DNA from: a virus | IMG/VR virus record: IMGVR_UViG_3300009104_001476 | Direction: 5' to 3' (one strand) | DNA length: 64,000 bases | In this document: piece by piece, positions 2,808-30,147 of the stretch | Layout: each line of letters begins with the position of its first letter | Position numbering within the stretch: the first letter of the stretch is position 1 | Translations under genes and position numbers: made by a program | Notes under the pieces: generated by a model | The model's input: the letters and a program-made list of their open reading frames with translations, nothing else | Databases searched by the model: none | Told to the model about the DNA's origin: nothing

Positions 2808-3740
2808 ATGATCTGTAAAGTCTGTAATAAAGAATTCGAAACAGAACGCCAACTTCATGCTCACTTAAAAGCTCATAAGTTGACGATGATAGAATATTAT
2901 CAACAATACTACCCCCGTTACGATCTATACGATAAAAAAATAATAAAATTTAAAAATAAAACTCAATACTTAAATACTGATTTTAACTCTAGGACTAATC
3001 TACGCATGTGGATGAAAGATAAGCCAGAAAATGAAGCTAAAGAATATTGCGCTTCTCTAATGAAAAAAAGAATAGAAAAAAAGGGCATAGAGTACGCTCC
3101 AACTCAAGTAGAGCTAAGAACTATTTTAAGTCCCCCTATTCAGTATCATGATAAGCTATTCGGATCTTACAACCAGTTCTGTGAGGGTTTAGGCCTAAAG
3201 ACTAAATTTGTATCTCCGGGAGAAATAGTCGAAGGCTCAAAATGGAAAGACGCTAAATACAAAATCTACGTAGATACGAGAGAGCAAAGACCTTTAAAAT
3301 TTAAAAATCGTCAAATAGAAATCAAAACTCTAAAGTTTGGAGATTACGCTTTTAGTAACAAGGAGGCGACCTGTAACTGTTATATAGAAAGAAAAAACTT
3401 GTCGGATTTCATAGGCACGATAAGTGGCGGCTACGAACGTTTTATAAATGAAATAGAAAGAGCCAAGGAAGCGGACGCTTATTTAGTTGTCCTAGTAGAA
3501 GACACCTTAACGAACTCGTTAAGCTTCCCATTCTTAAGGCATATATCTAAAAAAATTAAAGCTACTCCTGAATTTATTTTTAATAGAGTCAGAAGTCTTA
3601 CTCAGACTTATCCGCATATCCAATTTTTATTTGTTAAAGGCCGGGTAGAGTCCTCGAGGGTTATAGAAAAAATATTTACTAGCGGGTGCGTTCATGAAAA
3701 GATCGATCTCCAACTAGCATACGATACTAAGAAGTTATAA
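2808..3740 (+). CDS. C2H2 zinc finger plus ERCC4 (XPF/Mus81-like) endonuclease
   Basis: CKVC..HAHLKAH; VDTREQ...GDY...IERKNLSDF signature; TAATG overlap with TerL. Confidence 0.85.
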   Translation: MICKVCNKEFETERQLHAHLKAHKLTMIEYYQQYYPRYDLYDKKIIKFKNKTQYLNTDFNSRTNLRMWMKDKPENEAKEYCASLMKKRIEKKGIEYAPTQVELRTILSPPIQYHDKLFGSYNQFCEGLGLKTKFVSPGEIVEGSKWKDAKYKIYVDTREQRPLKFKNRQIEIKTLKFGDYAFSNKEATCNCYIERKNLSDFIGTISGGYERFINEIERAKEADAYLVVLVEDTLTNSLSFPFLRHISKKIKATPEFIFNRVRSLTQTYPHIQFLFVKGRVESSRVIEKIFTSGCVHEKIDLQLAYDTKKL

Positions 3741-5569
3741 TGTGGTACGCTCCAGAAAAATACAAAAAAGATATACTTGATGTAAATCAAGAGCTTCTTA
3801 AGTTGAAAGGTGATCTAGGAGAAAAAGAGGCCAAGATTACTCTTGTAAAGTTTCTAAAAGCTAACATAGGTTTTACCACGGAGCTTTTATCAGGAATTAA
3901 ATTAGCGCCCTATCAAGAGGTTACTCTTAAAGGATTATTTAATAGGAACTTTAGCATGTGTGTCTGGGGCCGTGGTTGTGGCAAATCTTTTATAGCTGCT
4001 GTTTACTGTTTTTTGCAATGTATTTTTGAGCCGGGAACGAAAATAATGATCGCTGGACCAACCTTTAGGACAGCTAGGAACATATTTACCAATTTAGAAA
4101 AGATGGTAGATTCGAAAGGCGCTGAATTGTTACGGCAAGCGTTTCATATACAACCCTCTAAAAGAAACGACCAATATGAATGGCAAATTAATGGAGGAAC
4201 GATAACAGCAATTCCGTTAAGCGGAGAAAAAATTCGTGGTTTTCGTGCAAACGTTTTGCTTTTAGACGAGTTCTTACTTCTTAGTGAAGACATAGTCAAA
4301 ACTGTTCTTATGCCATTCTTGGTAGCTCCACAGAACATGAAGGAAAGAATTGAAATCAGAGAAATAGAAGACAGACTAATTAAAGAAGGAGCGATGAAAG
4401 AAGAAGACCGAATGGTGTTCGAGAACGATTCTAAAATGATAGCTCTGTCTTCCGCTAGTTACACCTTCGAAAATTTATATAAAACCTACAAAGAGTGGGT
4501 GGAAAAAATTTACTCTAAAGAAGAGTTGGATGCGAGCTATTTTATATCTCAAATGGGATACGAAGCTTTACCGGAAGAGATGATAGACACAACCATTATC
4601 GAAGAAGCTCAAAACGGAGGACAAAGTCATTCAAGTTTTCAACGAGAATATTGTGCTCAGTTCACAGATGGCAGCGATTCTTACTTTAGTGCTAAAAAAA
4701 TGTTTGAGTGCACGGTCCCTGACGGAGATAAGCCAACCACTTTACTTAAAGGTAAACGAGATAAAAAATATATATTAGGAATTGATCCATCTTTTTCTAA
4801 TAGTCCCAGTTCTGATTATTTTGCGATGTCTATTCTAGAACTTGATGATGAAAGAAAAGACGGAACCTTGGTACACAGTTATGCCGTAGCTGGTGGAGAC
4901 TTAAAAGATCATATAAGATATCTTTATTATGTTATTAAAAACTTCGATATAGAAATGATTTGTATTGATAATGCCGGTTATCAATTTATCGACTCCGCTA
5001 ACGAATCTGAGTTATTTTTAAAAGACAACATAGACCTTAAATTCTTCGACTTTAATAGTGAAAAAGATGGCGATAATTATGCTATGGAATTAAAAAGAGC
5101 TAGAAGGGCTTACAATAAACAAAATGGAGCCATATGCTTTAAACAGGTATTCACTTCTGAGTTTATTCGAAAAGCCAACGAACACTTACAAGCGTGTATA
5201 GACCATAAAAAAATATGGTTCGCTTCCAAAACCTCTGCTCATGGCGACGTCTTTACAGGAGCGACAAAACAAAAGGTGGACGTTAGGCTAGTTTCGGAAG
5301 AGAACGTGGGCACATTTATAGAAACTCAAGACGACTTAATCTATCAGACAAAAAGGCAATGTGCTCTCGTAGAGGTTAAAACTACCGCAAGAGGTACGCA
5401 AACTTTCGATTTACCTCATCATCTGAAGCGTAGCACTTCTGCCTCAAGAGCTAGAAAAGATAATTATACCACATTAATGCTTGCAAATTGGGCTTTAAAG
5501 TCTTATTATGATATGATGGAAATAAATTTAGAAGACCAAGACGCTACTTTCGTCCCGAGGATGATATAA
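3740..5569 (+). CDS. terL: Terminase large subunit
   Basis: Walker A GRGCGKS, Walker B VLLLDE, coupling motif LSSAS, RNase H-like nuclease GIDP...IDNAG...RKDNY. Confidence 0.93.
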   Translation: MWYAPEKYKKDILDVNQELLKLKGDLGEKEAKITLVKFLKANIGFTTELLSGIKLAPYQEVTLKGLFNRNFSMCVWGRGCGKSFIAAVYCFLQCIFEPGTKIMIAGPTFRTARNIFTNLEKMVDSKGAELLRQAFHIQPSKRNDQYEWQINGGTITAIPLSGEKIRGFRANVLLLDEFLLLSEDIVKTVLMPFLVAPQNMKERIEIREIEDRLIKEGAMKEEDRMVFENDSKMIALSSASYTFENLYKTYKEWVEKIYSKEELDASYFISQMGYEALPEEMIDTTIIEEAQNGGQSHSSFQREYCAQFTDGSDSYFSAKKMFECTVPDGDKPTTLLKGKRDKKYILGIDPSFSNSPSSDYFAMSILELDDERKDGTLVHSYAVAGGDLKDHIRYLYYVIKNFDIEMICIDNAGYQFIDSANESELFLKDNIDLKFFDFNSEKDGDNYAMELKRARRAYNKQNGAICFKQVFTSEFIRKANEHLQACIDHKKIWFASKTSAHGDVFTGATKQKVDVRLVSEENVGTFIETQDDLIYQTKRQCALVEVKTTARGTQTFDLPHHLKRSTSASRARKDNYTTLMLANWALKSYYDMMEINLEDQDATFVPRMI

Positions 5570-5629
5570 ATTCTCATTTAAGGTTATTTTAGCTCATTTT
5601 TTTAAATTTTAGTTTTTTTTTATTCGTCA

Positions 5630-5635
5630 GTGTAA
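5630..5635 (+). promoter_or_regulatory. GTGTAA putative late promoter (portal)
   Basis: Recurrent motif 13 nt upstream of the ATG; also at 113(-), 478(-), 8692, 11084, 13221, 16601, 26164, 39853, 42339, 43556, 45854, 60969(-). Confidence 0.7.
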
Positions 5636-5648
5636 TATTATCTAAGTT

Positions 5649-7592
5649 ATGCCAGCTAAAAAGACCCAAACTACGAACGCGAAACAAGGGAAACCTTCTA
5701 TAGAAAAAAAGGCTTCTAGGAGGAAAAAGACCTCAAACGAAAGTACCCCCTTGATGACATCCTCTGCTTCTGCTAGGCAAGACACTGGGGTAAGAAGAAA
5801 CAAATCTGGCTCTATAGTCCGAACGGACCGGTTTAGGAACATTGACGAAGGAATGGTTCCCTTTAACTATTCTCTGGGCCCGTATGGAAAATCAGCAACA
5901 AATTTAGACGTAAGAGATACAGTCATCTTATGCCAAAAAGCTTATTATAATTTTGCTGTATTTAGAAACACTATCGATCTTATGACAGAGCTTTCTGTAA
6001 GCGAAGTTTATCTTACGGGTGGAAGTAAGAAGTCTAGGGAATTTTTTAACGCTTTTTTCAAGAAAGTTAATTTGAAAAGTCTACTTGATCGATTTTTCAG
6101 AGAGTATTATAGGTCAGGGAACGTTTTTTTATATAAGTTCGAAAAAGATATTACTAAAGCGGATGCGAAAAGACTGACTCAGACTTACGCTAACACTCTA
6201 GGCAAAATTTCAATTCCTGTTAGGTATACCTTGTTGAATCCCGCAGATATACAAGTAAGCGGTAATATCTCTTTCGCTACTGGAAAATTTTATAAAGTAT
6301 TAAACTCTTATGAAATGATGAGGTTAAAGAACCCTCAGACAGAAGAAGACTACGAGGTTTTAGAAAGTCTTCCTAAAGAAACTAAAGAGCAATTAAATAA
6401 TCAGTCCAAGCAATCCAACTCTATTCTAACCTTACCTTTGGACCCGAATAAAGTTTCAGCAGTTTTTTATAAGAAGCAAGATTATGAGCCTTTCGGAGTT
6501 CCGATGGGTTACCCAGTTTTAGAAGACATAAACTGGAAAGCTGAATTAAAAAAAATGGACATGGCTCTGACTCGGACTATGCAACAAATGATTTTACTTG
6601 TCACCATGGGTACCGAGCCCGACAAAGGAGGAGTGAACCAAAAGAATTTAGCGGCCATGCAGAGCCTTTTCGAAAATGAATCAATAGGCCGGGTTCTGAT
6701 TGCAGATTATACGACAAAAGCAGAATTCGTTATCCCTAAGATTGCAGACTTACTAGACCCTAAAAAATATGAAGTGGTAGATAGAGATATACAAATGGGT
6801 TTAAATAATGTTTTAGTAGGGGGAGAAAAATTCGCTAACCAAAGCGCAAGAATCGATGTGTTTATAGCTAGACTAACCCAAGCGAGAGAAACTTTTATTA
6901 ACGACTTCTTAATGCCTGAAATTAAATCTATAGCTAAAAAATTAGGCTTAAGAAATTATCCTACTCCAATTTTTGAAGACATTAAATTGAAAGACCCTTA
7001 TAACAACAATAGAATCTATAGTCGTTTAATTGAGTTAGGTATTTTAACACCAGAAGAAGGTTTAGAGGCTTTGCAGAGCGGTAGATTACCGACTAAAGAA
7101 GAATCTCTTGAGTCTCAAAAAGAATATGTAGACTACAAAGAGGAAGGCTTGTTCGCGCCTATAGCACCAAATCAAGACGCTGAAGAAGGCTCTAGTCAAA
7201 CAGGCAGTGGTAGACCCAACGGGACGACCAGCCCTCAAAACACAAAAACTATCAAACCGATAGGTGAAGGAGTGGGAAAGGAAATTTTTTCTCTTGAGAA
7301 GGTTAAAGATAACATGATTTTAGCCCAAAAATTAAATAATAAAATTGAGACAGAGCTTAAGAAAAAACACGAGCTTAAAGAATTGTCTCGAGAGCAATTA
7401 AATATAGCTTCTCAAATAGCAGACATAATCATAGTGAACGAAGAGCCTAAGTCTTGGATAAGAAAAGCTAAGAGCTATTTAAATAAGCCCGTAGATAAAA
7501 ATTTAGATAAGGTCAAAGAGGTTCAAAAGCTTGCTGCTGACCATCAGGTTGATGAATATTTAGCGGGTATATTATATGTTAGTAAAAAGTAA
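5649..7592 (+). CDS. Portal protein
   Basis: 647 aa directly after TerL; FRNTIDLM, ...YYRSGNVFLY, GVPMGYPVLEDI helical pattern typical of portals; synteny. Confidence 0.8.
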   Translation: MPAKKTQTTNAKQGKPSIEKKASRRKKTSNESTPLMTSSASARQDTGVRRNKSGSIVRTDRFRNIDEGMVPFNYSLGPYGKSATNLDVRDTVILCQKAYYNFAVFRNTIDLMTELSVSEVYLTGGSKKSREFFNAFFKKVNLKSLLDRFFREYYRSGNVFLYKFEKDITKADAKRLTQTYANTLGKISIPVRYTLLNPADIQVSGNISFATGKFYKVLNSYEMMRLKNPQTEEDYEVLESLPKETKEQLNNQSKQSNSILTLPLDPNKVSAVFYKKQDYEPFGVPMGYPVLEDINWKAELKKMDMALTRTMQQMILLVTMGTEPDKGGVNQKNLAAMQSLFENESIGRVLIADYTTKAEFVIPKIADLLDPKKYEVVDRDIQMGLNNVLVGGEKFANQSARIDVFIARLTQARETFINDFLMPEIKSIAKKLGLRNYPTPIFEDIKLKDPYNNNRIYSRLIELGILTPEEGLEALQSGRLPTKEESLESQKEYVDYKEEGLFAPIAPNQDAEEGSSQTGSGRPNGTTSPQNTKTIKPIGEGVGKEIFSLEKVKDNMILAQKLNNKIETELKKKHELKELSREQLNIASQIADIIIVNEEPKSWIRKAKSYLNKPVDKNLDKVKEVQKLAADHQVDEYLAGILYVSKK

Positions 7593-7594
7593 TT

Positions 7595-8692
7595 ATGTTG
7601 CGAAACCGAATCATTCACCAGAATGAGCTTCTGTATGTTGGACACGCTTTAGAATCCGGTCAAACATATTCTGCCCCTATCGTTACTAATCTAGATAAAG
7701 TCCAGTCTATCTCTTACGAATTCGCTTATGGTAGGTCTGAAGTTTCTGTAGTTGGAGAATCTAGCCCCGTTGATAGGCCCGTTAATTCTAGCCCTATAAC
7801 AAATTTAAATATCGATTATTTAATTGGCTCTTTCCATAATGAAAAACACTTAGGAATGAAAATTACGCCTCAAGGTTTTAGTTCTAGTTTTGCTTTATTA
7901 AGCGGTTTAGCAGACGAAACAGATAGAAGTAACGATAGGAGAAATCTATATTTAGTTACAAGCGAACAGGGCGTAGATGTGATGGAGGGGCAAACCGGGA
8001 ACATAAGCGGGGTGCTATGTTTTCACGATTGTCAAATAAATAGTTACAATGCTAGTTTTACAGTAGGCGACTTACCTAGGGCTTCAATATCTTTGCAAGG
8101 GGTAAACGCAAGTTACTTTAGTTCGGGCTCAGGTTTAGATGTAAAAGTCTTGGATAGAAAAACTGCGGACACGGCAGATACTATAGATGTTTCCATACCC
8201 ATGTCAGGGAACCAGATTTCTTTTTCAGAGACTTTTATTCCCGGAGAGATTAATGTAGAATTCTATAACTCTGACGGTAGCCCTATAGCGACCACTGGAT
8301 TTACTCCGATCACAAACCAAAAAGTCCAATCTTTTGATTTAAGTTTTTCCATTAATAGAAATGAAATTAATTTAGTTGATCATAAGATTAATTATGACAG
8401 ATTGTTGTCTACCCCAATTATAGGAACAAGCTCTATGTCAATTATAGATCACGGAACTCAATCTGGAGACTTATCCGACGTTCTTAATAACTCTGAAGAG
8501 TATAAGATAATAACTAAAATAATGCATAACTCTGCTCATAAAATGAGCTTTACTCTCAATAAAGTAAAAATAGATAAAATAAGTTACTCTCACTCTATAG
8601 GCGACAAGAAAATGATTAACCTTGCCCTCTCTTTCCCTATTGACCCGTTCAATGAAAACAAAAGCCTTAATTTCAGTGGTGCTTATTATTAG
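7595..8692 (+). CDS. Tail-tube-like protein, full-length paralogue of 42375..43493
   Basis: Colinear matches by eye: RNRIIHQ/KNRIIYQ, NLDKVQSISY/NLQRVQNVNY, NEKHLG/NEKTLG, VGDLPRASI/VGDFPTASI, SYSHSIGDKK/SYSTSIGDNK. Confidence 0.75.
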   Translation: MLRNRIIHQNELLYVGHALESGQTYSAPIVTNLDKVQSISYEFAYGRSEVSVVGESSPVDRPVNSSPITNLNIDYLIGSFHNEKHLGMKITPQGFSSSFALLSGLADETDRSNDRRNLYLVTSEQGVDVMEGQTGNISGVLCFHDCQINSYNASFTVGDLPRASISLQGVNASYFSSGSGLDVKVLDRKTADTADTIDVSIPMSGNQISFSETFIPGEINVEFYNSDGSPIATTGFTPITNQKVQSFDLSFSINRNEINLVDHKINYDRLLSTPIIGTSSMSIIDHGTQSGDLSDVLNNSEEYKIITKIMHNSAHKMSFTLNKVKIDKISYSHSIGDKKMINLALSFPIDPFNENKSLNFSGAYY

Positions 8693-8703
8693 TGTAAAGA
8701 CTA

Positions 8704-9867
8704 ATGGTAATCACCATGAATGAAGAAAGCCAAAATAAAACAACACCTTTAAACGAATATCAATACGGCTCCCCGGACTTAATTGTGCCTGATATTCCTA
8801 TGCCTGCTCCTCCGGAACCTAAGAAAGAAGTCGTAGATAAAGTCGATGGAGCTTTTCGGTTTGCTTTTGTCGGAGCGGGACAAGGCGGCTCTAGGATTGC
8901 AGAGATTTTTCACAAACTAGGCTATCGAAAAATAGCCGTCATGAATACCGCTCAGCAAGATTTAAATTTAATAAAAGTAGAACATAAACTATGCATAGGT
9001 GACGGTGGTGCGGGCAAAGAGCCTTCTGTAGCAAGAAAAAAGTTTGATGAAAGAAAAGAAGACGTTTTTGATTTTCTGAGAGATTCTTTAGGAGAAGGCG
9101 TTGATAGATATTTTATTTGTGCGGGCGCTGGAGGGGGAACGGGCGCGGGGACGGTGATGCCTTTAATTGAAACTGCTTCAGAATTGCAAAAATCTCAAGG
9201 GTCTTCAACCGATAAAGTAGGAGTAATTTTAGCTTTACCAAAAGTCTCAGAAGGGACAAAAGTTAATGCTAATGCTTATCAGGTTTTAGAAGAAGTATAC
9301 AGCGCTGTAGAAAGCGGCTTAGTCTCTCCTTTGGTTGTTGTCGACAACGAAAAAATAAATAAACTTTACCCCGGTCTTGGCGTGGCTCCGTTTTGGCAAA
9401 CAGCTAATATGAGTATAGCTGGACTATTCCATTTGTTCAATAATACTGCTACTAAAGACAGTTCTTTTTCTACTTTTGACACAAACGACTACAAACAGGT
9501 TCTCGATTCAGGCATGATAGTTTTCGGAGCTACCCAAATAATGCAATGGGAAAATCCAAGCGATATAGCTCAAGCAGTTAGAGACAACTTAAAAACTAAT
9601 GTCCTTTCGGGAGGTGTAGACTTATCTACTGGCACTAGCGCAGGAGTAATCATGATAGGGGGGAACGAGGTCTTAAATAACGTTCCTCAGGATCACCTAG
9701 ATAAAGCATTTGAACAATTTACTAGAATACTAGCAAATGGTAGCGTGGTGCATAGAGGTATCTATAGCGGTAACAAAGATAATCTAACAGCTTATACCAT
9801 GATTGGGGGCTTAGGTAAACCTCATGAGAAGCTGGAAGAACTTAAAAAACATGGAGGGCTTTTATAA
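8704..9867 (+). CDS. Tubulin/FtsZ-superfamily GTPase (PhuZ/TubZ/CetZ-like); start may be 8716
   Basis: T1 GAGQGGSRIAE, T3 GAGKEP, T4 GAGGGTGAG, VDNEK, T7-like FDTND; Pro-rich N-terminal extension. Confidence 0.9.
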   Translation: MVITMNEESQNKTTPLNEYQYGSPDLIVPDIPMPAPPEPKKEVVDKVDGAFRFAFVGAGQGGSRIAEIFHKLGYRKIAVMNTAQQDLNLIKVEHKLCIGDGGAGKEPSVARKKFDERKEDVFDFLRDSLGEGVDRYFICAGAGGGTGAGTVMPLIETASELQKSQGSSTDKVGVILALPKVSEGTKVNANAYQVLEEVYSAVESGLVSPLVVVDNEKINKLYPGLGVAPFWQTANMSIAGLFHLFNNTATKDSSFSTFDTNDYKQVLDSGMIVFGATQIMQWENPSDIAQAVRDNLKTNVLSGGVDLSTGTSAGVIMIGGNEVLNNVPQDHLDKAFEQFTRILANGSVVHRGIYSGNKDNLTAYTMIGGLGKPHEKLEELKKHGGLL

Positions 9868-12669: not shown

Positions 12670-13215
12670 GTGGGGGAAACCCTAGTCTTTATGGATTGCT
12701 TAATATTTGAAAACTCAGGTTTAAATGATAATCATGAGTCTCCCGAGGCAGACGGCCGAGCTCGTCAGCAGGAGGCTATTGATTTTTCTAATTTATTGAT
12801 TGGCCTTTTTGAGGACGTTTGCGAGGACGTCGAAGAGGTCTCTATAGAAGATTTAAAAAAGGTCTATGTCAAAGCTGCTCATAACTGCGAGACTGACAAA
12901 TGCTCGAACATTAACCTTTGGGCTTTAGCTAGAATCAATATGTTTATTAGAATGAAATCTCAGAAAGAAATCAAGCAAACTTCTGAGTCTTCTTTGAAGC
13001 AACCTATATCTAAGATTACCGAGATTCAATTAGAGTCTCCTTTTTTTTATGAAGATTTACAGTCTATCGATATCACAGCAAAATGGGAGCCTTCTCCTGA
13101 AGACTTTTCTTTAGCAGAGCAGTTCATAAATAAGTATGATTTAAAGTTTACCTTCTCAAGTGTTGATGATCTGTATATCGAAGAATACAAACCTTTGGAG
13201 CTAGAGCTCGAGTAA
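12670..13215 (+). CDS. Acidic hypothetical protein of the head module
   Basis: LKKVY...WALARINMF resembles a motif seen in phage head-associated proteins; GTG start uncertain. Confidence 0.5.
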   Translation: MGETLVFMDCLIFENSGLNDNHESPEADGRARQQEAIDFSNLLIGLFEDVCEDVEEVSIEDLKKVYVKAAHNCETDKCSNINLWALARINMFIRMKSQKEIKQTSESSLKQPISKITEIQLESPFFYEDLQSIDITAKWEPSPEDFSLAEQFINKYDLKFTFSSVDDLYIEEYKPLELELE

Positions 13216-13239
13216 AAGCGGTGTAATTATTATTACGTT

Positions 13240-14757
13240 ATGAAAGATTTTAAATTTAAGACAATTTTTAGTTCTGAGGTCAAGCCTTTGGTCTCTGAGG
13301 AGAAAGATGCTTATTTGGCTTTAGCTGCATTGTCTAACATCGGAGACTTAGTCCCAGACGTAGACACTAATAAAAATATAGATTTACTACCCGTAGCATT
13401 TAACGCTTTTGTAGCTAACAGAGTTAATAAAAATCATGACGTTATCAACACTGAGGCTGCTTTATCCATAGCTCATCATTTCGTAAATAAACCTATTAAT
13501 ATTGAACACAGTAGAGAGAAGGTTATTGGTACTATCCTAACAGCAGGTTATAGTGAGTTCGGAACAGACAAGCCTCTTACCGAAGAAGAGGTCAAAGATA
13601 TGAAGGGCCCCTTCAACGTAACCTTGGGTGGGGTTATTTGGAAAACTGTTAATGAGGAGGTTGCGGCTTTGATTGAAGATTCTAGTGATCCTACTAGCGA
13701 AAATTATCTTAAGGTGTCGGCTAGTTGGGAGCTAGGTTTTTCTGATTACCAATTAGTAATGATGAGCTCCGAAGATAAGAATATAGAGAATGGCGAATTT
13801 ATAACGAATCCAAATATTATCGAAGAGTTGGAAAAAAATTTAAAGAGTTTTGGTGGCGACGGTCTGACCGAAGATGGGAAATTCATATATAGACATGTAA
13901 TTGGCGAGATTGTTCCGCTAGGTATTGGTCTAACTGAAAGCCCAGCTGCTGAAGTAAAGGGCATTGTCACCAAAAGGGCAGAAGCCAAAAATGTTGTGGA
14001 AGAGGAAAAGTCTCCCGTGGAGATCGGATCCGAAAGTATTTCACATGAAAAAGAAAAAAATGTAAAAAATAAATACATATCGAGAGATAAAATCATGAAA
14101 ATTAATAGCATTAATGACATCACGGAAGATTCCATGAAAGAAATGTCTGCTTCTGCTATATCGGATTTCATCCGAAAAGAGCTCGAGGACGCCTCCGAGA
14201 AATTTTCTGCTGAGAAGCAGGGAGTGGAAACTGCTCTTAAGGACGCCGAGGAGAAGCACGAGACTCTTTCAAAGGATCACGAAGAACTAAAAAATAATAT
14301 GAAAACTATCCAAGACGAACTAGAAGTTCTTAAAGCTGAAAAGCTTGAGAAAGAACGTCAGGAAGCTTTCAATACCCGCATGGCCTCTTTAGACGAAGAG
14401 TACGAACTTAGCGATGAAGATCGTGAAGTGATCGCTTCGGACATTAAGGACATGAATGAAGAGACTTTTGAGGCTTATTCTAACAAGATGGCCGTTTTAC
14501 TTTCTGCAAAGAATCGTAAGGCTATTGCTGAAGAAGCTTCTCAGAAAGCTGAAGAAGAAGCGAAAGCTTCCGAAGCAGAAGAAAAAAATCTAGCTGAGGC
14601 TGAAACCGCTACCGAAGAGGTAGTCGAAGAAGTTTTAGAAGAAACTGAGCTTAAAACTGAGGTGCCCGTTAGCACTGCTGCCAACGAGCCGACCGTATAC
14701 GAAAAGTATAAGGCCGCGTTCGATATGGACGGTTTTGAGTTTAAATCACATCGTTAA
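13240..14757 (+). CDS. Prohead protease fused to an acidic coiled-coil scaffold
   Basis: INIEH..KVIG and SASWEL protease-type motifs in the N-terminal half; E/K-rich coiled coil in the C-terminal half; upstream of the capsid genes. Confidence 0.75.
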   Translation: MKDFKFKTIFSSEVKPLVSEEKDAYLALAALSNIGDLVPDVDTNKNIDLLPVAFNAFVANRVNKNHDVINTEAALSIAHHFVNKPINIEHSREKVIGTILTAGYSEFGTDKPLTEEEVKDMKGPFNVTLGGVIWKTVNEEVAALIEDSSDPTSENYLKVSASWELGFSDYQLVMMSSEDKNIENGEFITNPNIIEELEKNLKSFGGDGLTEDGKFIYRHVIGEIVPLGIGLTESPAAEVKGIVTKRAEAKNVVEEEKSPVEIGSESISHEKEKNVKNKYISRDKIMKINSINDITEDSMKEMSASAISDFIRKELEDASEKFSAEKQGVETALKDAEEKHETLSKDHEELKNNMKTIQDELEVLKAEKLEKERQEAFNTRMASLDEEYELSDEDREVIASDIKDMNEETFEAYSNKMAVLLSAKNRKAIAEEASQKAEEEAKASEAEEKNLAEAETATEEVVEEVLEETELKTEVPVSTAANEPTVYEKYKAAFDMDGFEFKSHR

Positions 14758-15390: not shown

Positions 15391-16524
15391 ATGAAATTAA
15401 AATTAAAAAACACACCTGAACAGGTTGAATTAGTTAAGGCTCTTGGTTCTAAGGATGCGGCTGTGGCAAGGGAAGCTCAAGAAGCTTTCGCTGCCTTTAT
15501 CGGTCCTGTTATCCAAAAGGTTATCAAGCAGTCTGCTACCGCTGGTTTAGTCTACACAGATGTCTCTTATGATGAAGACGATAGTCCAAGCTACCCGTTA
15601 GACTTGTACTATGATCAATCCGCTGGTCATGTGACTGTATGGTCACAAAGCATGGCTGGAGGTTTACCGACCTCGCTGACTGAGGGCGTTAAAGAGCTTA
15701 AAATCTCTACTTACAGACTTGACGCAGCTATTTCTTGGCTTAAGAAGTATGCTCGCAGAGCTCGTTTGGACGTAGTTAGTAAAGCTCTTGAGCGTATGTC
15801 TCAGGAAGTTTTGTTGAAGCAAGAGCGTAACGCTTGGGCTGTCATTTTGAAAGCTCTAGGCAACTCTAGTTCAACTAACTCTGTTGCAGCTAACAATGGT
15901 CACATTCTAGCTACCAATCAAGAAAGCAAGTTCTCTGTTGCTGACATCAGTCGCCTGATGACTCACATGAAGAGAATTAGCGCTTCTTTTGCTAATGGTA
16001 CTGCTGATCCTTCTGACTCTTTTGGTCTTACTGACCTATATGTGAGTCCTGAGGTTCTTGAGCAGATCCGTGGCTTCGCTTACAATCCGCTGAACACTGA
16101 AGGTTCTTCCGTTGGTGTTATGGGTCTTCCCGATGGCGTACGTGAAGGAGTATGGCGTGGTGCAGGAATGAGCGAGATCTATGGCGTGGCTATTCATGAT
16201 CTAGTGGAGCTTGGCTCGAGCAAGAAGTATAATACCTTGTTCAGCACCTTCGCTCAGAACGGAATCGCCCACACGTCTGGTACCGCAATTGGTGCTCAAA
16301 GCACTAACTTTGCTGACGCCGCTGACGAGATCTTGATCGGTATCGACGCATCTAAGGAAGCCTTCATTCGCCCTGTGGCAATGAATGCCGACAATGGTGC
16401 AACCTTTACCGCACTTCCCGACGACCAATTCGCCCAAAGAGCCGACAAGGTTGGCTTCTATGGCGCTATGGAAGAGGGTCGTGTTTGCATCGATGCGAGA
16501 GCTTGTGCAGGCTTGGTCATGTAA
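15391..16524 (+). CDS. Major capsid protein (HK97 fold inferred)
   Basis: 377 aa, strong RBS, GCT/GGT/CGT-biased codons, strong terminator after it, synteny. Confidence 0.85.
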   Translation: MKLKLKNTPEQVELVKALGSKDAAVAREAQEAFAAFIGPVIQKVIKQSATAGLVYTDVSYDEDDSPSYPLDLYYDQSAGHVTVWSQSMAGGLPTSLTEGVKELKISTYRLDAAISWLKKYARRARLDVVSKALERMSQEVLLKQERNAWAVILKALGNSSSTNSVAANNGHILATNQESKFSVADISRLMTHMKRISASFANGTADPSDSFGLTDLYVSPEVLEQIRGFAYNPLNTEGSSVGVMGLPDGVREGVWRGAGMSEIYGVAIHDLVELGSSKKYNTLFSTFAQNGIAHTSGTAIGAQSTNFADAADEILIGIDASKEAFIRPVAMNADNGATFTALPDDQFAQRADKVGFYGAMEEGRVCIDARACAGLVM

Positions 16525-19724: not shown

Positions 19725-22700
19725 ATGATTAGTAATGTAAACATTCAAAGTGAATCGATTACAGACATTCTTAGCGCTCCTCTGGGTGTTCATTATGTTA
19801 TATACTGTGTTTATTTTTGCAATAAATCAGACACCAAAGAAGAAACGGTTACGATCCATTTAGCTGACGGATCGACAAGCTCTTTTAATTCAGAGACAAC
19901 TATACTTAAGGAAGTAATTATCCCCCCGGGGGAGACTTTCGTTTTAGGATCTTCTAAGAAGCTTTCTAACGTTGTTCATTACATGAAAAAAAGAGGAATT
20001 GAAGAAAACAAAATATATTTAAACCCGGGTGAGACTTTGGCCGCCTCCTCTTCTGGCCTTAACGTTGTAGCTTCTCCTATTTATTATAAGTTTGGTGAGG
20101 AAGAAAGGGATAATCCGATAGAAAGCCCTACTCCCACGCCTTCTGTGACCCCTAGCTCTGGAGTAATAAGCGAGTTTTGTCCTTGTAATCGTAATCCAAA
20201 TGATCAATATCAATATTCTGATTATGCTCATGTGAATACAGGAAATAATTTTTTCCTAGTCCCTTATAATGATACTATTTCTCCTCATGCAACCTCAGGT
20301 AAAACTATATTTAAAGCAGGGGATTGTATTTGGTATAAAACCCGTCCTTTTGGAACAATTGAACATCAAACACCTACATGGATCAATAAAGTTGGAAGAG
20401 TTGAAGGCCCTGTGTATCATGGAAACGATCCTTATTATAAAATAATTTTATATGAAAGACTTCCAGAGAGATTAGTAGTCGGAACTCAAATTTATAGATG
20501 TGACTCTTCGGTTCACGGGCTTACCCCAACCCCGACAAGCTCTATTACTCCCACGCCTTCTGTAACGCCCTCAAAAGTAACCCCGAGTGCAACCCCTACA
20601 AATAGTACGACCCCGAGCGCGACTCCGAGCGTGACTCCAAGCAATACTCCTACTAATAGTAGAACCCCAACTACAACACCAACTCCTACAGCATCTGAAC
20701 CGGTTCTCGGATGCGAAATTGAAGTAAGCGGTGCTCCTATCTCAATTATTAATGGGCTATACGAGCCAGCTGGTACACATAACGTATGGGGGTCAACTAG
20801 AACCTATTATCGCCAAGTTTGGCCCGAGAACACCCCCTCCAAGGCTGGAGCGCACGAATCTCGTTACTTTAAAATGTGGCACGATTCCGTTCGGTGGATT
20901 GTCGGTCGATTTCTGGGTACACCGGGGTTGGGAAACGAATGGATCCAATCCCAAGATACGCAAGCTGTACATCCTTGGAGCGCGCCTTGGGGGCATTCAT
21001 ACCCTCTGCCTTCTTGGGGCACCTCTGTATCGCAAGTTATCTGTCCAACCCCGAGCGTGACCCCAAGCGTGACCCCGACCAATACCCCTACGAATAGCGT
21101 TACTCCGAGTAATACTCCGAGCGTTAGCCTAAGCAGTAGCCCGGGTAGTTCCCCAAGTAATACCCCGAGTAATACTCCAAGTAATACTCCAAGTAATACT
21201 CCAAGTAATACTCCAAGCAATACCCCGAGTAATACTCCAAGTAGTACCCCGAGTATAACGCCTACGTCTTCTATGACTCTTTGTTCTTGCACTACTGCTG
21301 CATGGCACCCTGACTCGTCTATAGCAGATCCAGCACCTCATGATTTGTACGAAGCCGCCTCTGGAAATTCCGGCTCCCATACGATCGAAATGCCGTGGGG
21401 CACGGTAGCAGCACCGGGGCACGTCCATCCAGTTTTAAAAGAAGGGGATTGTGTTTATTTCCGTCAGCCAAGCGGGCCGAACCCTAATGGTAGGTTTGGT
21501 AACGGTCCATTTTATTTTCGTAAAATTATTAGTCGAAGTAATCCTGATCCCCACGGCCAAGGCGGTTATCGGACTTTTACAATAGACGCTCCTCTCCCGT
21601 TTAATCTTTGGAACTCCGGGTGGGGGACTCAAGTCCATTTATGCGGTTCGTCTACACTCGTGCCCACCCCGACGCCTAGCCCGACTCCTCCTCCTACCCC
21701 GAGCACTGTTCCGCCGTCTAATTGTGACCCATTTGCTAGTTATGTTACTATCGCTATCGATAATGATCAACCTTCAACTTGGGGTCCGGGAAAACTTAAT
21801 GATCTTACAGGAAATAATACTGTCTATGATGCAAGCGTCGGTAGATGGTTTCCTGCGGGCGACACTCTGGGTAGCTTCACGCGGAAAGACTTTACTATAG
21901 AAGCGGTGGTTAAAAATCCCGCTTCGGGTAACGGGATTTTAAGTCAATGGTATAGTCGTGAACAAACTGGAAACTGTTTTATAATGTATTTCTATCCTTG
22001 GCCACGCCTATGGGTTGAAACACCTTTTGGTCTTATCCAAGGGAAAACCGACTTTTCCGGAGGGGGGGAATTCCACATAGTCCTGAACAGGTCAGGGCAA
22101 AATATTGATCTCTTTGTCAATGGGGAATTAGATACTCATCTAGAAAGGTCTCGGTCTTATCCATGGCCGGCGTGTGATAGTAATTATAGAGCGAGCATTG
22201 GTGGGTTTGGTCGTAACGAGGAAAATAACACCGTTTGGGGGAACGGTGACCCCGTGACTAAACTAAGGGTGACAAAGGGTGTCGCAAGGTATGATCTTAA
22301 TAACATCAAAGCTGGATCTTTAGAATTCTTAACAAGGCCTATATCGGTTAAGTCTTGCGATGGGACGGTAGAGGGAGTGGATTGTGGTGTTTTCGAACAT
22401 ACCGCAACAAAAACATTGTATACGTTGAGTAATAGCAGTTTTAATTATGACACTTTGTCTGAGTATAATTCACGTCGGGATGCTGATGTGCAAAGTGATA
22501 TGCCAGCGGGGTGGGAGCCTGCAGATTGGTCAGATTTTGCGAGTTTTACTAAACAAGATTTTATAAATTTGATAAACGTTATAGGCCCCTGTCATTCAAA
22601 CGACCCCATGGATTATGAAGCCGCTGTTAATACGGTCGGTAGTGACTACGAATGGAATTTGGGGTGGGTAGGAAAATGTTCTACAGCTAATAGCCAGTTC

Positions 22701-25340
22701 CCATTCTTTTTAACATTTGCTAATGGAGTTAAGCCTAGGTGGTACTCTCGGCATTGCAACTACTTAAACGACTTTATGATTACGGGAGCTTGGTACTCTA
22801 ACATGCAGCACGTAATAAAGAAGAAGGATGAGAGTACCCCTTTACCAAGCTTAACTCCCACTCCTAGCGCTTCGGAAAAAGTAAAAACTGAAATAGAATA
22901 CTGTAAGCCTCTTTTTGCTTCTTTATATAATATAATAGCTTTTTCTCCACACGCCTTACAAGCTAATGGAGTTTATTCTTTCGAAGATGGTAGTGTCTCG
23001 ACATTGCCTAACGTGAGGAATTTTGCCATCTCTCAAAACTCTAATCATAGTTGGATAAATGCATTATTTCAGCTTGAAATGATTAGCAGAAATGAACAAA
23101 CAAACTTAGAAACTTGGAGGTTAACTTTAACGAATTGGCCAAAACTAGACGGAACACTATACCCAATCGTTGCGGGCACGGATAGCGCTTATTACATTAG
23201 TGAAGAAGTTAAAGCTAAAAGTGGCAATTTATTAGACTTTAGATTTAAAGGCAACGGTTCTGTTCTGGTAGATTTCGATGAAGACCTAAAAAATACTTGC
23301 GAGGATAAACCTATTAATCTTTGCAGTAATGTTACCAAACCAGATTATTGGTACATGCATAATAACCATATTGCAGGAATTACTCATCATAGAATGAACC
23401 TTTTTAATTCTGAAACTCTCGTTGCGGATCGGGCTGGCTGGGGACAATGGATTGGTTTCAATGCAGGGGACTTTCGACCTTATTTTAACCATCTGACGCT
23501 TTTAACGCTGAAGTATACCGCTGCCGAAACAGCTAAACATAAGATGGCCAATTTAAAGACCTTCGTAGGAGGGAATAATCCTTTCCAGCTCAATAAATAT
23601 GATTTCCAAGGACCTTGGGTAAAAAATATAAGCGATACGCGACACATAAAACTAACTGTTCATATTAATGATGTTTTCCGACATAGTATAGTAATTCCTA
23701 ATGTTAAATATTCAACCAATCACAATATGGATAACGACTTGACTCTCTTACTCTCAGGTAGTTATTATGTAGTTGATCCATTATCATATGAAGTAGAACA
23801 GGGAGATGAAGTTACCATAAGCTTGACAGTTGAGAACTCTCCGGGGCTTCTTGTAAACGGGTCGGAACATTCATTAGTAATATCGAAAGGCTCATCTACT
23901 GGGTTAAGTAAATTGAGCAACGTTGTGACGTATTGGGACTCTAACGATAACCCATTTAAAGACTTTAATACTTTACAAGGGAACAATTTGGTTAAGGCGT
24001 TTTTGCCTATTTATGGTTTATCTTATGATCAGGCAGTTGATGAAGGACTTGTTCACTTGGCGGGCTTAAGCGAGCATATAACTGCGATATCGGATAATAA
24101 TGGCCAATTAGTCAATATCCTGCCGGGGGCCAGCCCCGGGGACGTGAGCGGCGTCTTGGTTATAGATACGTATGAAGACTTGTTCTTTTCCGCGTCAAAT
24201 ATGGAAGTGGGAGATACGGTAAATTTAAACGCGAACGTGTACCCGGGCCTAAAGAGACTATTTAATAACGTGTCAGGATTACAGGGGGTCGTTAAATATA
24301 AATTTGGAATTTTATATGTGATAAGTTGGACCTTGAATACGAACGGCAGTAGAGCTAAGAAAACTCTTTCCGAGATTAGACGTTTTGACAGCGCGAGGGC
24401 TCATTGGAAGTTCTTAAACTATGATAAATGCACAAGCGGTACTAATCCCGGCGTTAGCCCAAGTTTAGGAATTACTCCTACGCCTTCTCCAACACCATCT
24501 CTTAATTTAAATACGAGACCTGATCCATGCAATAATACATATTCAGCAGAAGGCGTTACGTTTACCGCAAACGACACCACCGTTTTACATGGTGGGACCT
24601 TGCCTGTTCGTAGCGGTCAGGCAATTACTGTTAGGTGGCCAGACGGTCAAACAAGTGGAGGTCTTGCCGCGTTGGGAGGTCTTGGGAGGCCAAATATTAA
24701 TCAGTTCCTTCCTAGTTGCAATCCAGACGGAACTTATCATATAAGGTTAGCTGCTAAGCCTACGGAAGTTGAAGACTACCTTAGGGATTGTATGGGACCA
24801 GACTGCACGGGCACCTATGGCACTGCTTGCCCTCATTACGTATGTATAGACGGTAAAACTGTCAGAGAGTATACTTTTTATCACGTGGCTGGTAAATCCT
24901 CATATGAATTTTGGTGTTCAATTGGGCCTGACAAAAAACTCTTTAGTAAAGCCACGCTTAACGTGGCCGAATCTTCGTCAGCAGGGTGCGAAGCAAATGA
25001 CCCTGCGACAATGACTGCAAGGCTGGCAGGACCTTGGATGGGAGATAGACCTCCGTATAAATGTCAGGGGGGCGGAGTCTACGCTGACGGTCCTTTCTCA
25101 TGGGCCGATACTGCAGCACAGGGGAGTTTCCCGAAGTGGGTTGGACCTCTATGCGAGTTGGAATGTTTATCCGGAAGGTTTTCTTCTATACAAGTTTGGC
25201 AATTAACCGTATCAGGATGGTCGTATTGTAAAGGGCCCGAATATGTCGCCATAGCTGAAAAGGCCCCAGATGAGGATTCGATAACTTTTAATATAGGATC
25301 AGGAACTATTGAGATAGGATTTCATAAAGTCTGCCCTTAA
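19725..25340 (+). CDS. 1871-aa multidomain fibre/appendage protein with Ser/Thr/Pro mucin-like linkers and a LamG-like domain
   Basis: TPTPSVTPS and SNTP tracts; DFTIEAVVK...FHIVLNRSG...LFVNG; duplicated GDC.Y...GTQ...C module; Cys-rich. Confidence 0.7.
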   Translation: MISNVNIQSESITDILSAPLGVHYVIYCVYFCNKSDTKEETVTIHLADGSTSSFNSETTILKEVIIPPGETFVLGSSKKLSNVVHYMKKRGIEENKIYLNPGETLAASSSGLNVVASPIYYKFGEEERDNPIESPTPTPSVTPSSGVISEFCPCNRNPNDQYQYSDYAHVNTGNNFFLVPYNDTISPHATSGKTIFKAGDCIWYKTRPFGTIEHQTPTWINKVGRVEGPVYHGNDPYYKIILYERLPERLVVGTQIYRCDSSVHGLTPTPTSSITPTPSVTPSKVTPSATPTNSTTPSATPSVTPSNTPTNSRTPTTTPTPTASEPVLGCEIEVSGAPISIINGLYEPAGTHNVWGSTRTYYRQVWPENTPSKAGAHESRYFKMWHDSVRWIVGRFLGTPGLGNEWIQSQDTQAVHPWSAPWGHSYPLPSWGTSVSQVICPTPSVTPSVTPTNTPTNSVTPSNTPSVSLSSSPGSSPSNTPSNTPSNTPSNTPSNTPSNTPSNTPSSTPSITPTSSMTLCSCTTAAWHPDSSIADPAPHDLYEAASGNSGSHTIEMPWGTVAAPGHVHPVLKEGDCVYFRQPSGPNPNGRFGNGPFYFRKIISRSNPDPHGQGGYRTFTIDAPLPFNLWNSGWGTQVHLCGSSTLVPTPTPSPTPPPTPSTVPPSNCDPFASYVTIAIDNDQPSTWGPGKLNDLTGNNTVYDASVGRWFPAGDTLGSFTRKDFTIEAVVKNPASGNGILSQWYSREQTGNCFIMYFYPWPRLWVETPFGLIQGKTDFSGGGEFHIVLNRSGQNIDLFVNGELDTHLERSRSYPWPACDSNYRASIGGFGRNEENNTVWGNGDPVTKLRVTKGVARYDLNNIKAGSLEFLTRPISVKSCDGTVEGVDCGVFEHTATKTLYTLSNSSFNYDTLSEYNSRRDADVQSDMPAGWEPADWSDFASFTKQDFINLINVIGPCHSNDPMDYEAAVNTVGSDYEWNLGWVGKCSTANSQFPFFLTFANGVKPRWYSRHCNYLNDFMITGAWYSNMQHVIKKKDESTPLPSLTPTPSASEKVKTEIEYCKPLFASLYNIIAFSPHALQANGVYSFEDGSVSTLPNVRNFAISQNSNHSWINALFQLEMISRNEQTNLETWRLTLTNWPKLDGTLYPIVAGTDSAYYISEEVKAKSGNLLDFRFKGNGSVLVDFDEDLKNTCEDKPINLCSNVTKPDYWYMHNNHIAGITHHRMNLFNSETLVADRAGWGQWIGFNAGDFRPYFNHLTLLTLKYTAAETAKHKMANLKTFVGGNNPFQLNKYDFQGPWVKNISDTRHIKLTVHINDVFRHSIVIPNVKYSTNHNMDNDLTLLLSGSYYVVDPLSYEVEQGDEVTISLTVENSPGLLVNGSEHSLVISKGSSTGLSKLSNVVTYWDSNDNPFKDFNTLQGNNLVKAFLPIYGLSYDQAVDEGLVHLAGLSEHITAISDNNGQLVNILPGASPGDVSGVLVIDTYEDLFFSASNMEVGDTVNLNANVYPGLKRLFNNVSGLQGVVKYKFGILYVISWTLNTNGSRAKKTLSEIRRFDSARAHWKFLNYDKCTSGTNPGVSPSLGITPTPSPTPSLNLNTRPDPCNNTYSAEGVTFTANDTTVLHGGTLPVRSGQAITVRWPDGQTSGGLAALGGLGRPNINQFLPSCNPDGTYHIRLAAKPTEVEDYLRDCMGPDCTGTYGTACPHYVCIDGKTVREYTFYHVAGKSSYEFWCSIGPDKKLFSKATLNVAESSSAGCEANDPATMTARLAGPWMGDRPPYKCQGGGVYADGPFSWADTAAQGSFPKWVGPLCELECLSGRFSSIQVWQLTVSGWSYCKGPEYVAIAEKAPDEDSITFNIGSGTIEIGFHKVCP
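21151..21256 (+). repeat. 12-nt coding tandem repeat (agtaatactcca, SNTP x~8)
   Basis: Directly visible; encodes PSNT repeats. Confidence 0.9.
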
Positions 25341-25343
25341 TTT

Positions 25344-25371
25344 TAGACTTTTAGATATTGAAGTGTATAAT
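25344..25371 (+). promoter_or_regulatory. Promoter of the ribozyme unit (TAGACT-16-TATAAT overlapping GTGTAT)
   Basis: Perfect TATAAT at 25366-25371 and a 4/6 -35; predicted +1 at ~25377-25379. Confidence 0.6.
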
Positions 25372-25379
25372 ATTTTATA

Positions 25380-25598
25380 GGTTGGCCACATTGGGTGAAT
25401 TCGGTGGAACTCTCTTTTTAGAGACAATACCGAGCCAAGCCAGAGGGGGTATTGATACTCTGGAAGGTGTAGAGACTAGGCGGTGAGACCCGACAATAAC
25501 CCGCCCACGAGCGCCCAACGCTATCTAGTGAAGATATAGTCCGAACTATACGGTGACGTATAGAAGCTGCAATTAAAAAACCAGCGATAACATAAATG
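25380..25598 (+). ncRNA. Group I ribozyme core (IA-like, with P7.1), no homing ORF, apparently permuted in L1
   Basis: P3 ttgggtg 25391-97 / cgcccaa 25512-18; P4 ttcggt / accgag; P6a ccagag / ctctgg; P7 GAGACTA 25472-78 / TAGTCC 25537-42; J8/7 AAGATA; P9 ctatacg-GTGA-cgtatag; omega-G 25598. Confidence 0.88.
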
Positions 25599-25674
25599 GA
25601 CCGTGGAGTTGAGCCAGTGTACAAATCTGTGCTAATGGCCCGTGCAGAGGTGTAACTCAAACTTCATGTCGGCT
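25599..25674 (+). ncRNA. Predicted 76-nt circular RNA (back-spliced exon)
   Basis: Lies between omega-G and U25674, which pairs with guide G25384; folds into a closed rod after ligation. Confidence 0.6.
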
Positions 25675-25685
25675 GACAATTAACG

Positions 25686-25724
25686 GTCGTTAAGGCTTGA
25701 AAGAGCTTTAACGGCTTATTTTTT
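25686..25724 (+). terminator. Rho-independent terminator of the ribozyme unit
   Basis: 13-bp stem gtcgttaaggctt-GAAA-gagctttaacggc + ttatttttt. Confidence 0.85.
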
Positions 25725-25756: not shown

Positions 25757-26134
25757 ATGAAGAAAAAGAGCGCAAAAAAGTCTAAAAAAAACACCAAGCT
25801 AAAGTCTTTATCTCAGACTCACGGTAAACAAGAGACAGATTTTCAACCAACCACTTTGGACCAAATTTGGGGAGATGATGGGGTGGCTAAATATGGGACT
25901 TTAAACGAAGAAGAGTATAATAGGCAAATCCAAAACATGCATTTTTCGGACCTAAGAACTCATGCAGCAGATATTGGCTTAATTCCTGTGGATGATAGAG
26001 AGCTGCTTACTAAAAGAGTTTTATCTGAATTTAGAAGGCATCGTAATAATTATACGGTTCCGGCCGATGACGTCAATGGGCCAGAGCCAGAGATTAGCGA
26101 AAAAGCTAGAAAGATATTAGAAGAAGGTAAATAA
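25757..26134 (+). CDS. Hypothetical protein with a basic N-terminus
   Basis: 125-aa ORF with phage-like codon usage. Confidence 0.6.
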   Translation: MKKKSAKKSKKNTKLKSLSQTHGKQETDFQPTTLDQIWGDDGVAKYGTLNEEEYNRQIQNMHFSDLRTHAADIGLIPVDDRELLTKRVLSEFRRHRNNYTVPADDVNGPEPEISEKARKILEEGK

Positions 26135-26196
26135 TTTTTTTAAGTTAACATAGGCTAAGAAGAGTGTAATATTTAATGTTATACTCTTTTTTTATT

Positions 26197-29500: not shown

Positions 29501-30147
29501 CTGCAGGCGCAGCTAGCACTGAACCCGGTCCTACTGGGTCTACAGGACCTACAGGCGCGGTGGGCATGGGCGGATCAGGGGGGACGACCCCAACTATTTC
29601 AACAAAAGGTATAGAGGCGTATGTCGGGAATAGCCTATGTTTTAACCCGTTCGAGTCTTCCGAACAATTTCATGTTAATAACTCTCTGGGGGAAACATTA
29701 AATTCTCTTCAAATTATAAATCACGGAGGTTTTATACCAGAGCCTTGCGAAATCGGATCGTACAAAGCTTATATAGTCAGTAGTGATTTAGATAGTTCTA
29801 GCGCTTGCTCTATTACAATTTATAAAAATGGGGTTTCTACAGGTATTACGAGTGTAGTAAACGGTTCCTCATACGCAGGCCAAACAGTTCATTTAATTAA
29901 CGAAACGAGTGGCCAACCAAACAGTTTGAATTTATCGGCTGGAGATAAAATAACGGCCGTTTGTGTTTGTAGTGGAGTAGAGAACAGTAGAGGGGTTATC
30001 TTTAAACTTTCCGGAGTAACTTCAGTAGGCGTAGGTCCAACAGGCCCAGCCGGAGACGCAGGCGCAGGTGGAAATACTGGTCCCACAGGGGCTACTGGGA
30101 GTGTAAATACCAGTGATATTATAAAATATACCTTAATTTTTGGATAA
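26539..30147 (+). CDS. Collagen-like fibre protein with three cupredoxin-like inserts
   Basis: Long GAT/GPT Gly-X-Y tracts; three L..GYTY.F...VP.DAP..LYY...MGG modules; ends LIFG. Confidence 0.85.
28921..29070 (+). repeat. Collagen-coding tandem repeat including an exact 36-nt duplication (28978-29013 / 29014-29049)
   Basis: ggagctacggggagcacaggagctacaggcgcaact x2. Confidence 0.9.

Follow-up and report, generated by a model that had tools for sequence, protein, structure and literature searches.

A free-standing class IA group I ribozyme in phage late-gene leaders, with its guide first, its 5' splice site downstream of omega-G and a small circular RNA as predicted product

Background

Two complete genes of an uncultured aquatic phage, an ORF of 1871 aa that ends at 25340 and one of 125 aa that starts at 25757, are separated by a gap of 416 nt, and this gap is occupied by a unit that carries the core of a group I intron. 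The question that the locus raises is what such a core can splice when the genes on both sides of it are whole. The original prediction had proposed a rewired order (guide, core, omega-G, exon and, at the end, the 5' splice site), in which the RNA would splice backwards and close a circle. The window, by which we mean the whole stretch of 64 kb that was analysed, belongs to the virion-gene region of a 142-kb virus record. Table 1 collects the features; all the positions given in the original prediction agree with the sequence.

Table 1. Features of the ribozyme unit and of the genes around it (positions in the window)
Feature	Position	Strand	Remarks
Terminase	3740-5569
Portal-like gene	5649-7592
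Capsid-like gene	15391-16524
Upstream 1871-aa ORF	19725-25340	+	stops 43 nt ahead of the guide G; complete, and no exon of the element
Promoter-like site	25363-25371	+	predicted; recurrent GTGTA(A) motif of the phage overlapping TATAAT (25366-71)
Internal guide	25380-25387	+	wobble G25384; P1 25385-87; P1 extension 25381-83; P10 25380-83
Linker from guide to P3	25388-25390	+	3 nt; no P2
Catalytic core	25391-25542	+	P3, P4-P6a, P7, P7.1 and minimal P8
P3	25391-96/25513-18	+	assigned by hand
P4	25400-05/25429-34	+	assigned by hand
P4-P6a	25400-25468	+
P7	25472-78/25537-42	+	G25474-C25541 guanosine site; bulged A25473
P7.1	25479-83/25501-05	+	single extra hairpin between P7 and P3 (class IA)
Minimal P8	25520-29	+
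P9	25546-63	+	GUGA (GNRA) loop 25553-56
Second hairpin past P9	25566-85	+	conserved 3' tail runs on to 25597
Omega-G	25598	+	putative 3' splice site after it; position and context conserved in 36 curated members
Exon, predicted 76-nt circle	25599-25674	+	closing stem, internal loop and distal hairpin; non-coding
Downstream 5' splice site	25671-25677	+	predicted cut U25674/G25675, based on covariation with the guide
Terminator-like hairpin and U-run	25685-25724	+	hairpin 25685-25716; closes the unit here
Downstream 125-aa gene	25757-26134	+	basic N-tail and small helical domain

Results and discussion

An intact core without an interrupted gene

The Rfam model RF00028 matched at 25341-25563 with 76.5 bits (E 1e-17), well above its cut-off of 50, which was the check proposed for the group I core, and P3-P9, the G-binding P7 and the GNRA-capped P9 could each be located in the sequence. 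The same cut-off was passed by 4 of the 8 loci of relatives that were tested. RF00028 was the sole match in Rfam, with neither group II domains D1-D6 nor a riboswitch aptamer; a match to GIR1 is absent there, and an endonuclease gene is absent from the unit too. An intact class IA core occupies 25380-25598, and the 142-kb record has no other group I core; its placement is at the level of class IA. The core motifs are invariant among the family members described below, and omega-G was placed by its pattern and by analogy. The spacing between guide and P3 is similar in two other introns that lack P2 (L076 and L114), both of which have an upstream P1 hairpin, and in L114 the frame ahead of it looks like coding sequence as far as the splice site.

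Regarding the surroundings, the absence of a host gene or tRNA held, as the flanking ORFs are complete and ARAGORN found no tRNA in the window. Thus, the element has the core P3-P9, the guanosine site in P7, the omega-G, the class IA hairpin and the U.G pair in P1, and judged by this core it is a group I ribozyme; the usual definition of an intron does not apply to it, because no host gene with an upstream 5' exon and a downstream 3' exon is interrupted. The 1871-aa ORF is not an exon since the homologues have differing upstream genes.

The setting of the unit

The TATAAT box is present where it had been noticed, and it overlaps a GTGTA(A) motif which is found 8-30 nt ahead of many start codons throughout the genome (for instance at 5620-5650, 8680-8704 and 26160-26176). 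This motif is probably the late promoter of the phage, and if so the mRNA leaders would be very short. The terminator (25686-25724 in the original prediction) is real in this genome, with a z-score of -5.8 for its hairpin, but it is found in only 3 of the 39 members of the family (the window, L284 and L143). A close relative in one public run (X20) retains both the distal exon stem and the terminator despite substitutions.

The 125-aa protein has 178 relatives in viral contigs, usually encoded right after the capsid gene; they were retrieved by an alignment-based search, a single-sequence search having found none, and no relative was found in cultured phages. Fold searches gave weak SAP/HeH-like and SAP/Rho-N-like matches (best E 0.56), and we consider its product a candidate nucleic-acid-binding virion protein. 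The virion-gene region of the window also holds collagen fibre genes, and a tubulin/TubZ-like phage GTPase lies within the head-gene cluster at 8704-9867 (Pfam Tubulin, E 1e-11).

A family of homologues in front of late genes

We found 39 phage homologues: 36 distinct members when viral and metagenome contigs were scanned for the pattern, and 3 more in a search that used the downstream protein alone as anchor. The order of promoter, guide, core, omega-G, hairpin exon and downstream G.U site is kept across them. According to the downstream gene they split into sub-family A (the 125-aa gene; exon of 75-80 nt), sub-family B (a gene of 500-800 aa; exon of 60-71 nt, in one case 135) and sub-family C (a gene of 560-1020 aa; exon of 119-138 nt), and one member (L126) has a fourth type of downstream gene and an exon of 179 nt. 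All members have an AT-rich promoter region, with a GTGTA(A)-type motif or a TATAAT-like box shortly before the guide. The upstream genes are complete and unrelated, or even divergent in sub-family B. A scan of bacterial and archaeal genomes returned chance matches only, none of them with a core, and in cultured phages we found only distant conventional cores. A tree that included conventional introns is compatible with one origin of the family or with several.

The ribozyme is an optional element ahead of late genes: among 80 relatives of the 125-aa gene, 74 lack it. The loci free of it consist of a terminator, a promoter and the start codon, mostly directly after a capsid-like gene. In five members (the window, L284, L143, L126 and L153) a separate promoter-like site serves the next gene and the exon and its site are retained, so the unit would persist there without a role as mRNA leader.

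Several observations were made alongside. A motif 13-25 nt before the guide G in 16 members (L127, L131, L037 and L140 among them) resembles the boxA of stable-RNA operons; one similar site occurs in this genome, 15.5 kb ahead of the window. Cores of related type that also stand free and have a boxA-like leader lie near 8823 in L185 and near 4897 (- strand) in L051, and in L185 a stretch of 14 nt upstream of the guide complements another some 120 nt beyond the core, an arrangement that recalls engineered extended guides. A minimal free-standing variant (L175:5360-5600, - strand, and L178 near 4414) has promoter, guide and core, a very short predicted exon (about 20 nt), a G.U site and a P1 of 7 bp, with no gene directly after. 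Conventional-looking group I introns occur in tandem within single phage loci (L243 near 12857-13400, L114 and L105), and a phage tmRNA (L037:8096-8486; Rfam, 109 bits) lies about 4 kb from a family member.

The guide changes together with the downstream site

The pairing of 25381-87 with 25671-77, in which G25384.U25674 is the fourth pair from the base of P1, was found as described. There is no GGCU within 350 nt upstream of the guide, which agrees with the reported lack of an upstream site; the nearest one is about 360 nt away, inside the large ORF. Nevertheless, a match of 7 bp is by itself within chance for a window of 64 kb, where better duplexes exist elsewhere, and therefore the case rests on the relatives. 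One of those duplexes, a perfect complement of the guide over 10 nt near 29907, was rejected as a splice site because a C faces the wobble G.

In the relatives the complementarity between guide and downstream site is retained with compensatory changes, as the original prediction expected of homologues. Four types of guide and site change together (GGCC with GGCU, GACC with GGUU, GUCC with GGAU, and GGUC with GACU). The splice sites were curated after the guides had been seen, and a blind scan from omega-G to the start codon gives the same sites: 33 of 36 guides meet a strict site within the tail that belongs to them, whereas tails of members with another guide contain one in 69 of 640 cases (11%), so that the matrix of guide type by tail is nearly diagonal. 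After shuffling, on average 2.6 of the 36 guides had such a site, and the value of 33 was reached in none of 20,000 permutations. The remaining three guides form variants of the pairing with a wobble or a G-C; the window has a U.G at the first extension pair. The three members recovered solely through the neighbouring protein (L284, L297 and L336) follow the same rule.

Pair by pair, the G.U at the predicted splice site is present in 35 of the 36 members. The G+1 pair of P1 is G-C in 29, A-U in 4 and U-A in 3; G+2 is C-G in 33, U-A in 2 and U.G in 1; G+3 is C-G in all 36; and the first extension pair beyond the cut is U-A in 32, A-U in 2, C-G in 1 and U.G in 1. The guide G lies at -7 from P3, except for one member where it lies at -8. 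On a tree of the core, built without the columns of guide and site, G+1 and U-1 change 7 times each, and 7 times they change together as a pair; the independent pairs on well-supported branches are 3, all concordant, a number at which a sign test stays without significance (p 0.25). In one member (L143 near 6664, - strand) a G-C replaces the G.U, and it is possibly degenerate or uses another site.

Other details of the proposed pairing fared less well. The extension of P1 by acat/atgt (25388-91/25666-69) is doubtful, because U25391 is the first base of P3 (a first pair that is U-A in 28 members and C-G in 8) and 25666-69 are taken up by pairing within the exon stem; only 8 of 18 close relatives keep the first pair of the extension, and the other two sub-families lack it altogether. 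P10 (25380-83/25599-602) can pair, but only 2 bp of it are conserved in sub-family A (18/18 and 18/18) and it is poor in B and C. The trinucleotide gac does follow both splice sites in this genome and in two relatives, whereas most members have AA after the 5' site.

The ends of the exon are held together

The exon can close on itself through a stem of 14 bp (exon positions 1-3 with 70-72 and 5-15 with 58-69), which leaves the junction in a GGCU tetraloop. Across sub-family A this stem is 98.9% paired, with two-sided changes in 11 of 12 pairs, and the slid controls reach 33-43%. The exon ends of A keep the register 1:-4 (54/54), in which the first base after omega-G is paired with the base four before the cut in all 18 members, and those of B keep 2:-3 (34/36 over four pairs, 10-22 when slid), from the second base to the one three before the cut. 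Both registers leave the predicted junction in a loop of 4 nt and both compete with P10 or P1. Such a fixed register at the junction is the strongest ground for proposing the second, circle-forming step, because cleavage alone would not need it. The exon ends of sub-family C showed no fixed register.

The distal hairpin has no single aligned register (46% paired), RNAalifold on the exons of sub-family B gave no structure from what is a poor alignment, and the exon had no match in Rfam. The exon sequence is also poorly conserved across the sub-families, so a circle function common to the whole family would be conjectural. As for what the circle might be, a circular mRNA was rejected, as 76 nt is not divisible by 3, there are stops in the rolling frame and the lengths in the family cover all residues modulo 3. 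A tRNA mimic, suggested by the 76 nt, the 1:72 pairing and an invariant A37, was also discarded: the other landmarks are missing, with no T-loop or CCA in the alignment. The genome contains no antisense target of the circle of 12 nt or more.

Twenty public runs, mostly marine metatranscriptomes, share a small part of the stretch, and four were compared. In X1 an identical contig of 153 nt (25493-25645, depth 2.5) and in X2 one of 219 nt with 7 differences cross omega-G unspliced. The predicted junction was not among the assembled contigs of the four RNA runs, which have low depth and come mostly from diverged relatives; contigs assembled in this way can contain DNA, and library preparation usually loses circles as short as 76 nt. 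An exact match of 18 nt to the junction in a viral contig (L348) is a chance match inside an unrelated GC-rich coding region.

Proposed reaction and its alternatives

Taken together, the covariation in the family supports the rewired order, and the catalysis is proposed from the established chemistry of group I introns and from engineered RNAs of the same topology. Transcription from the phage promoter would start a few bases before the guide, and because the transcript begins there it would have no 5' exon. The core would then fold, and the exon would fold back through its covarying stem, bringing its far end beside omega-G, and the guide would pair with GGCU 25671-74, as their covariation shows. 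In the first step, GTP bound in P7 is expected to attack after U25674 and to stay on the 3' piece; in the second, the 3'-OH of U25674 would attack after omega-G 25598, giving the 76-nt circle and a linear ribozyme. The end stem of the circle would then compete with P10 and P1, which should aid release. In this genome the 3' piece would be the terminator only, so the product would be the circle and the free ribozyme, and in most relatives the same cut would also free the mRNA of the next gene, with a short leader and an added G. We estimate a probability of about 0.75 that the RNA is cleaved by GTP at U25674, ligated to G25599 and releases this non-coding circle.

The main rival function is the processing of mRNA 5'-ends. 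Here the first step, by GTP attack or by hydrolysis, would only cut the ribozyme off the next mRNA, providing a short 5' end that resembles a G cap or setting the timing of translation; the exon stem would be a tether and little or no circle would be made. In 33 of the 36 members the predicted cut indeed precedes a start codon by 2-50 nt, the genes that follow are of at least three unrelated kinds, the ordinary mRNAs of the phage have similarly short leaders, judging from the distance of its promoter motif to the ATG, and P10 is weak. There are also precedents, namely the riboswitch-intron for c-di-GMP of C. difficile (PMC3984707) and the lariat-capping ribozyme (discussed in PMC8637638). However, the omega-G and the exact 4-nt register of the junction are kept in two sub-families, although the first step has no need of them, and the five members mentioned above, including the window, uncouple the next gene and yet keep everything. 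Therefore, we regard cleavage without circle formation as unlikely.

A conventional or decaying intron, whose true 5' exon would lie upstream in a longer transcript and whose downstream match would be due to chance, can draw on the weakness of a lone 7-bp match and on possible read-through from the 1871-aa gene, as no terminator was detected between it and the unit. This reading is largely refuted by the sequence comparison and we give it hardly any weight: the upstream ORFs vary among the members as described, strict upstream sites appear in only 3 of 36 members and at scattered distances, no conserved upstream exon or P1 exists, and it is the downstream site that covaries with the guide while the core motifs stay invariant. 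We consider a selfish or trans-acting element somewhat less improbable than that, but still very unlikely. In such a case the released linear ribozyme would be the agent and the cis site would serve to mature it; the ribozyme could then reverse splice, or it could cleave or trans-splice other RNAs at GGCU sites. Its patchy presence (6 of 80 loci of the 125-aa gene, four gene contexts overall) would fit, and so would a contig on which the element occurs in two copies whose guides differ (L015 and L036). Nevertheless, the unit encodes neither a homing endonuclease nor a reverse transcriptase, a guide of 4-7 nt would be unspecific in trans, with dozens of such sites in the genome, and the length and stem of the exon are under selection. 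As an observation apart, those two copies precede paralogous genes, and their guides, GACC and GUCC, each have their own matching site.

Returning to circle formation as the preferred reading, and provided that its chemistry is right, there is about an even chance that selection in this sub-family acts on the circle, a small, stable and structured non-coding RNA, which would most likely serve as a protein-binding decoy or scaffold late in infection. Alternatively, the element would excise itself from a 5' leader and leave the ring as a by-product. More tentatively, and at slightly worse than even odds, we suggest a widespread family of genes in aquatic phages that use a domesticated group I ribozyme to make small, stable, structured and functional non-coding circular RNAs, for example protein decoys, and of which many members also mature the mRNA of a virion gene.

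If the element works as proposed, a natural group I ribozyme would be a gene of its own, and a unit of 350 nt would offer a directly testable source of circular RNA in phages, where circles are hardly known. It would also be an evolved and compact scaffold for RNA circularisation, having no P2, a minimal P8 and a P1 of 4 bp. The questions then raised are how an element without ORF spreads between the leaders of late genes, and whether GTP-dependent self-cleavage serves as 5'-end maturation of phage mRNAs.

Comparison with known systems

The class IA introns of phages (T4 td, nrdB and nrdD, the RF00028 family, and L076 and L114, which lack P2) share with the element the core P3-P9, P7.1 and the G-binding site, as well as the G.U in P1 four pairs from the base, the short linker between P1 and P3, the 3' tail and omega-G. 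In contrast, here there is no interrupted gene, no upstream exon and no homing endonuclease, and because the 5' splice site comes after omega-G, a circle is predicted instead of a ligated mRNA.

The original prediction knew of no described phage case. Natural back-splicing by a group I intron is known from the coral mitochondrial ND5-717 intron, which yields an exon circle (PMC6545197), although in another layout: that intron interrupts ND5 and is opened in P8 by the transcript boundaries, and its 2.1-kb circle is an mRNA intermediate, whereas the phage core is continuous, its break lies in the loop of P1 and the unit is free-standing. A 2023 survey of natural RNA permutations has no group I entry (PMC10085705), and in the literature searched, which included few subscription journals, neither this phage family nor the same layout in a natural group I ribozyme of phages or bacteria was described.

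The C. difficile c-di-GMP-II riboswitch-intron and the lariat-capping ribozyme are likewise of group I type, sit in 5' leaders and reshape mRNAs, but they have the normal order of splice sites or a branching chemistry, and the phage unit has no aptamer. The circularly permuted (CP) group II ribozymes are natural, stand-alone and without ORF, with reversed splice sites and small circles of unknown function (PMC8637638). The phage unit would be their group I counterpart, with the difference that they belong to another class, use branching in place of an exogenous guanosine and have scrambled domains, which are unchanged here.

The guide-first engineered designs, to which the locus had been likened, have an identical topology. 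Engineered RNAs of this kind circularise; TRIC needs a stem around the junction (PMC12270912) and STS needs only P1 (PMC10457212). As in these constructs, the intact ribozyme comes first, the cargo follows omega-G, the target of P1 is at the 3' end of the cargo and a stem of at least 5 bp encloses the junction. The junction loop has 4 nt here (more if the outer 3 bp open) and 7 nt in TRIC, and the phage unit differs from both designs in being natural and under selection, in having no extended guide and in carrying a tiny non-coding cargo. On the more tentative reading of a domesticated family, this would be the first natural counterpart, in a prokaryotic virus, of engineered guide-first circularisation.
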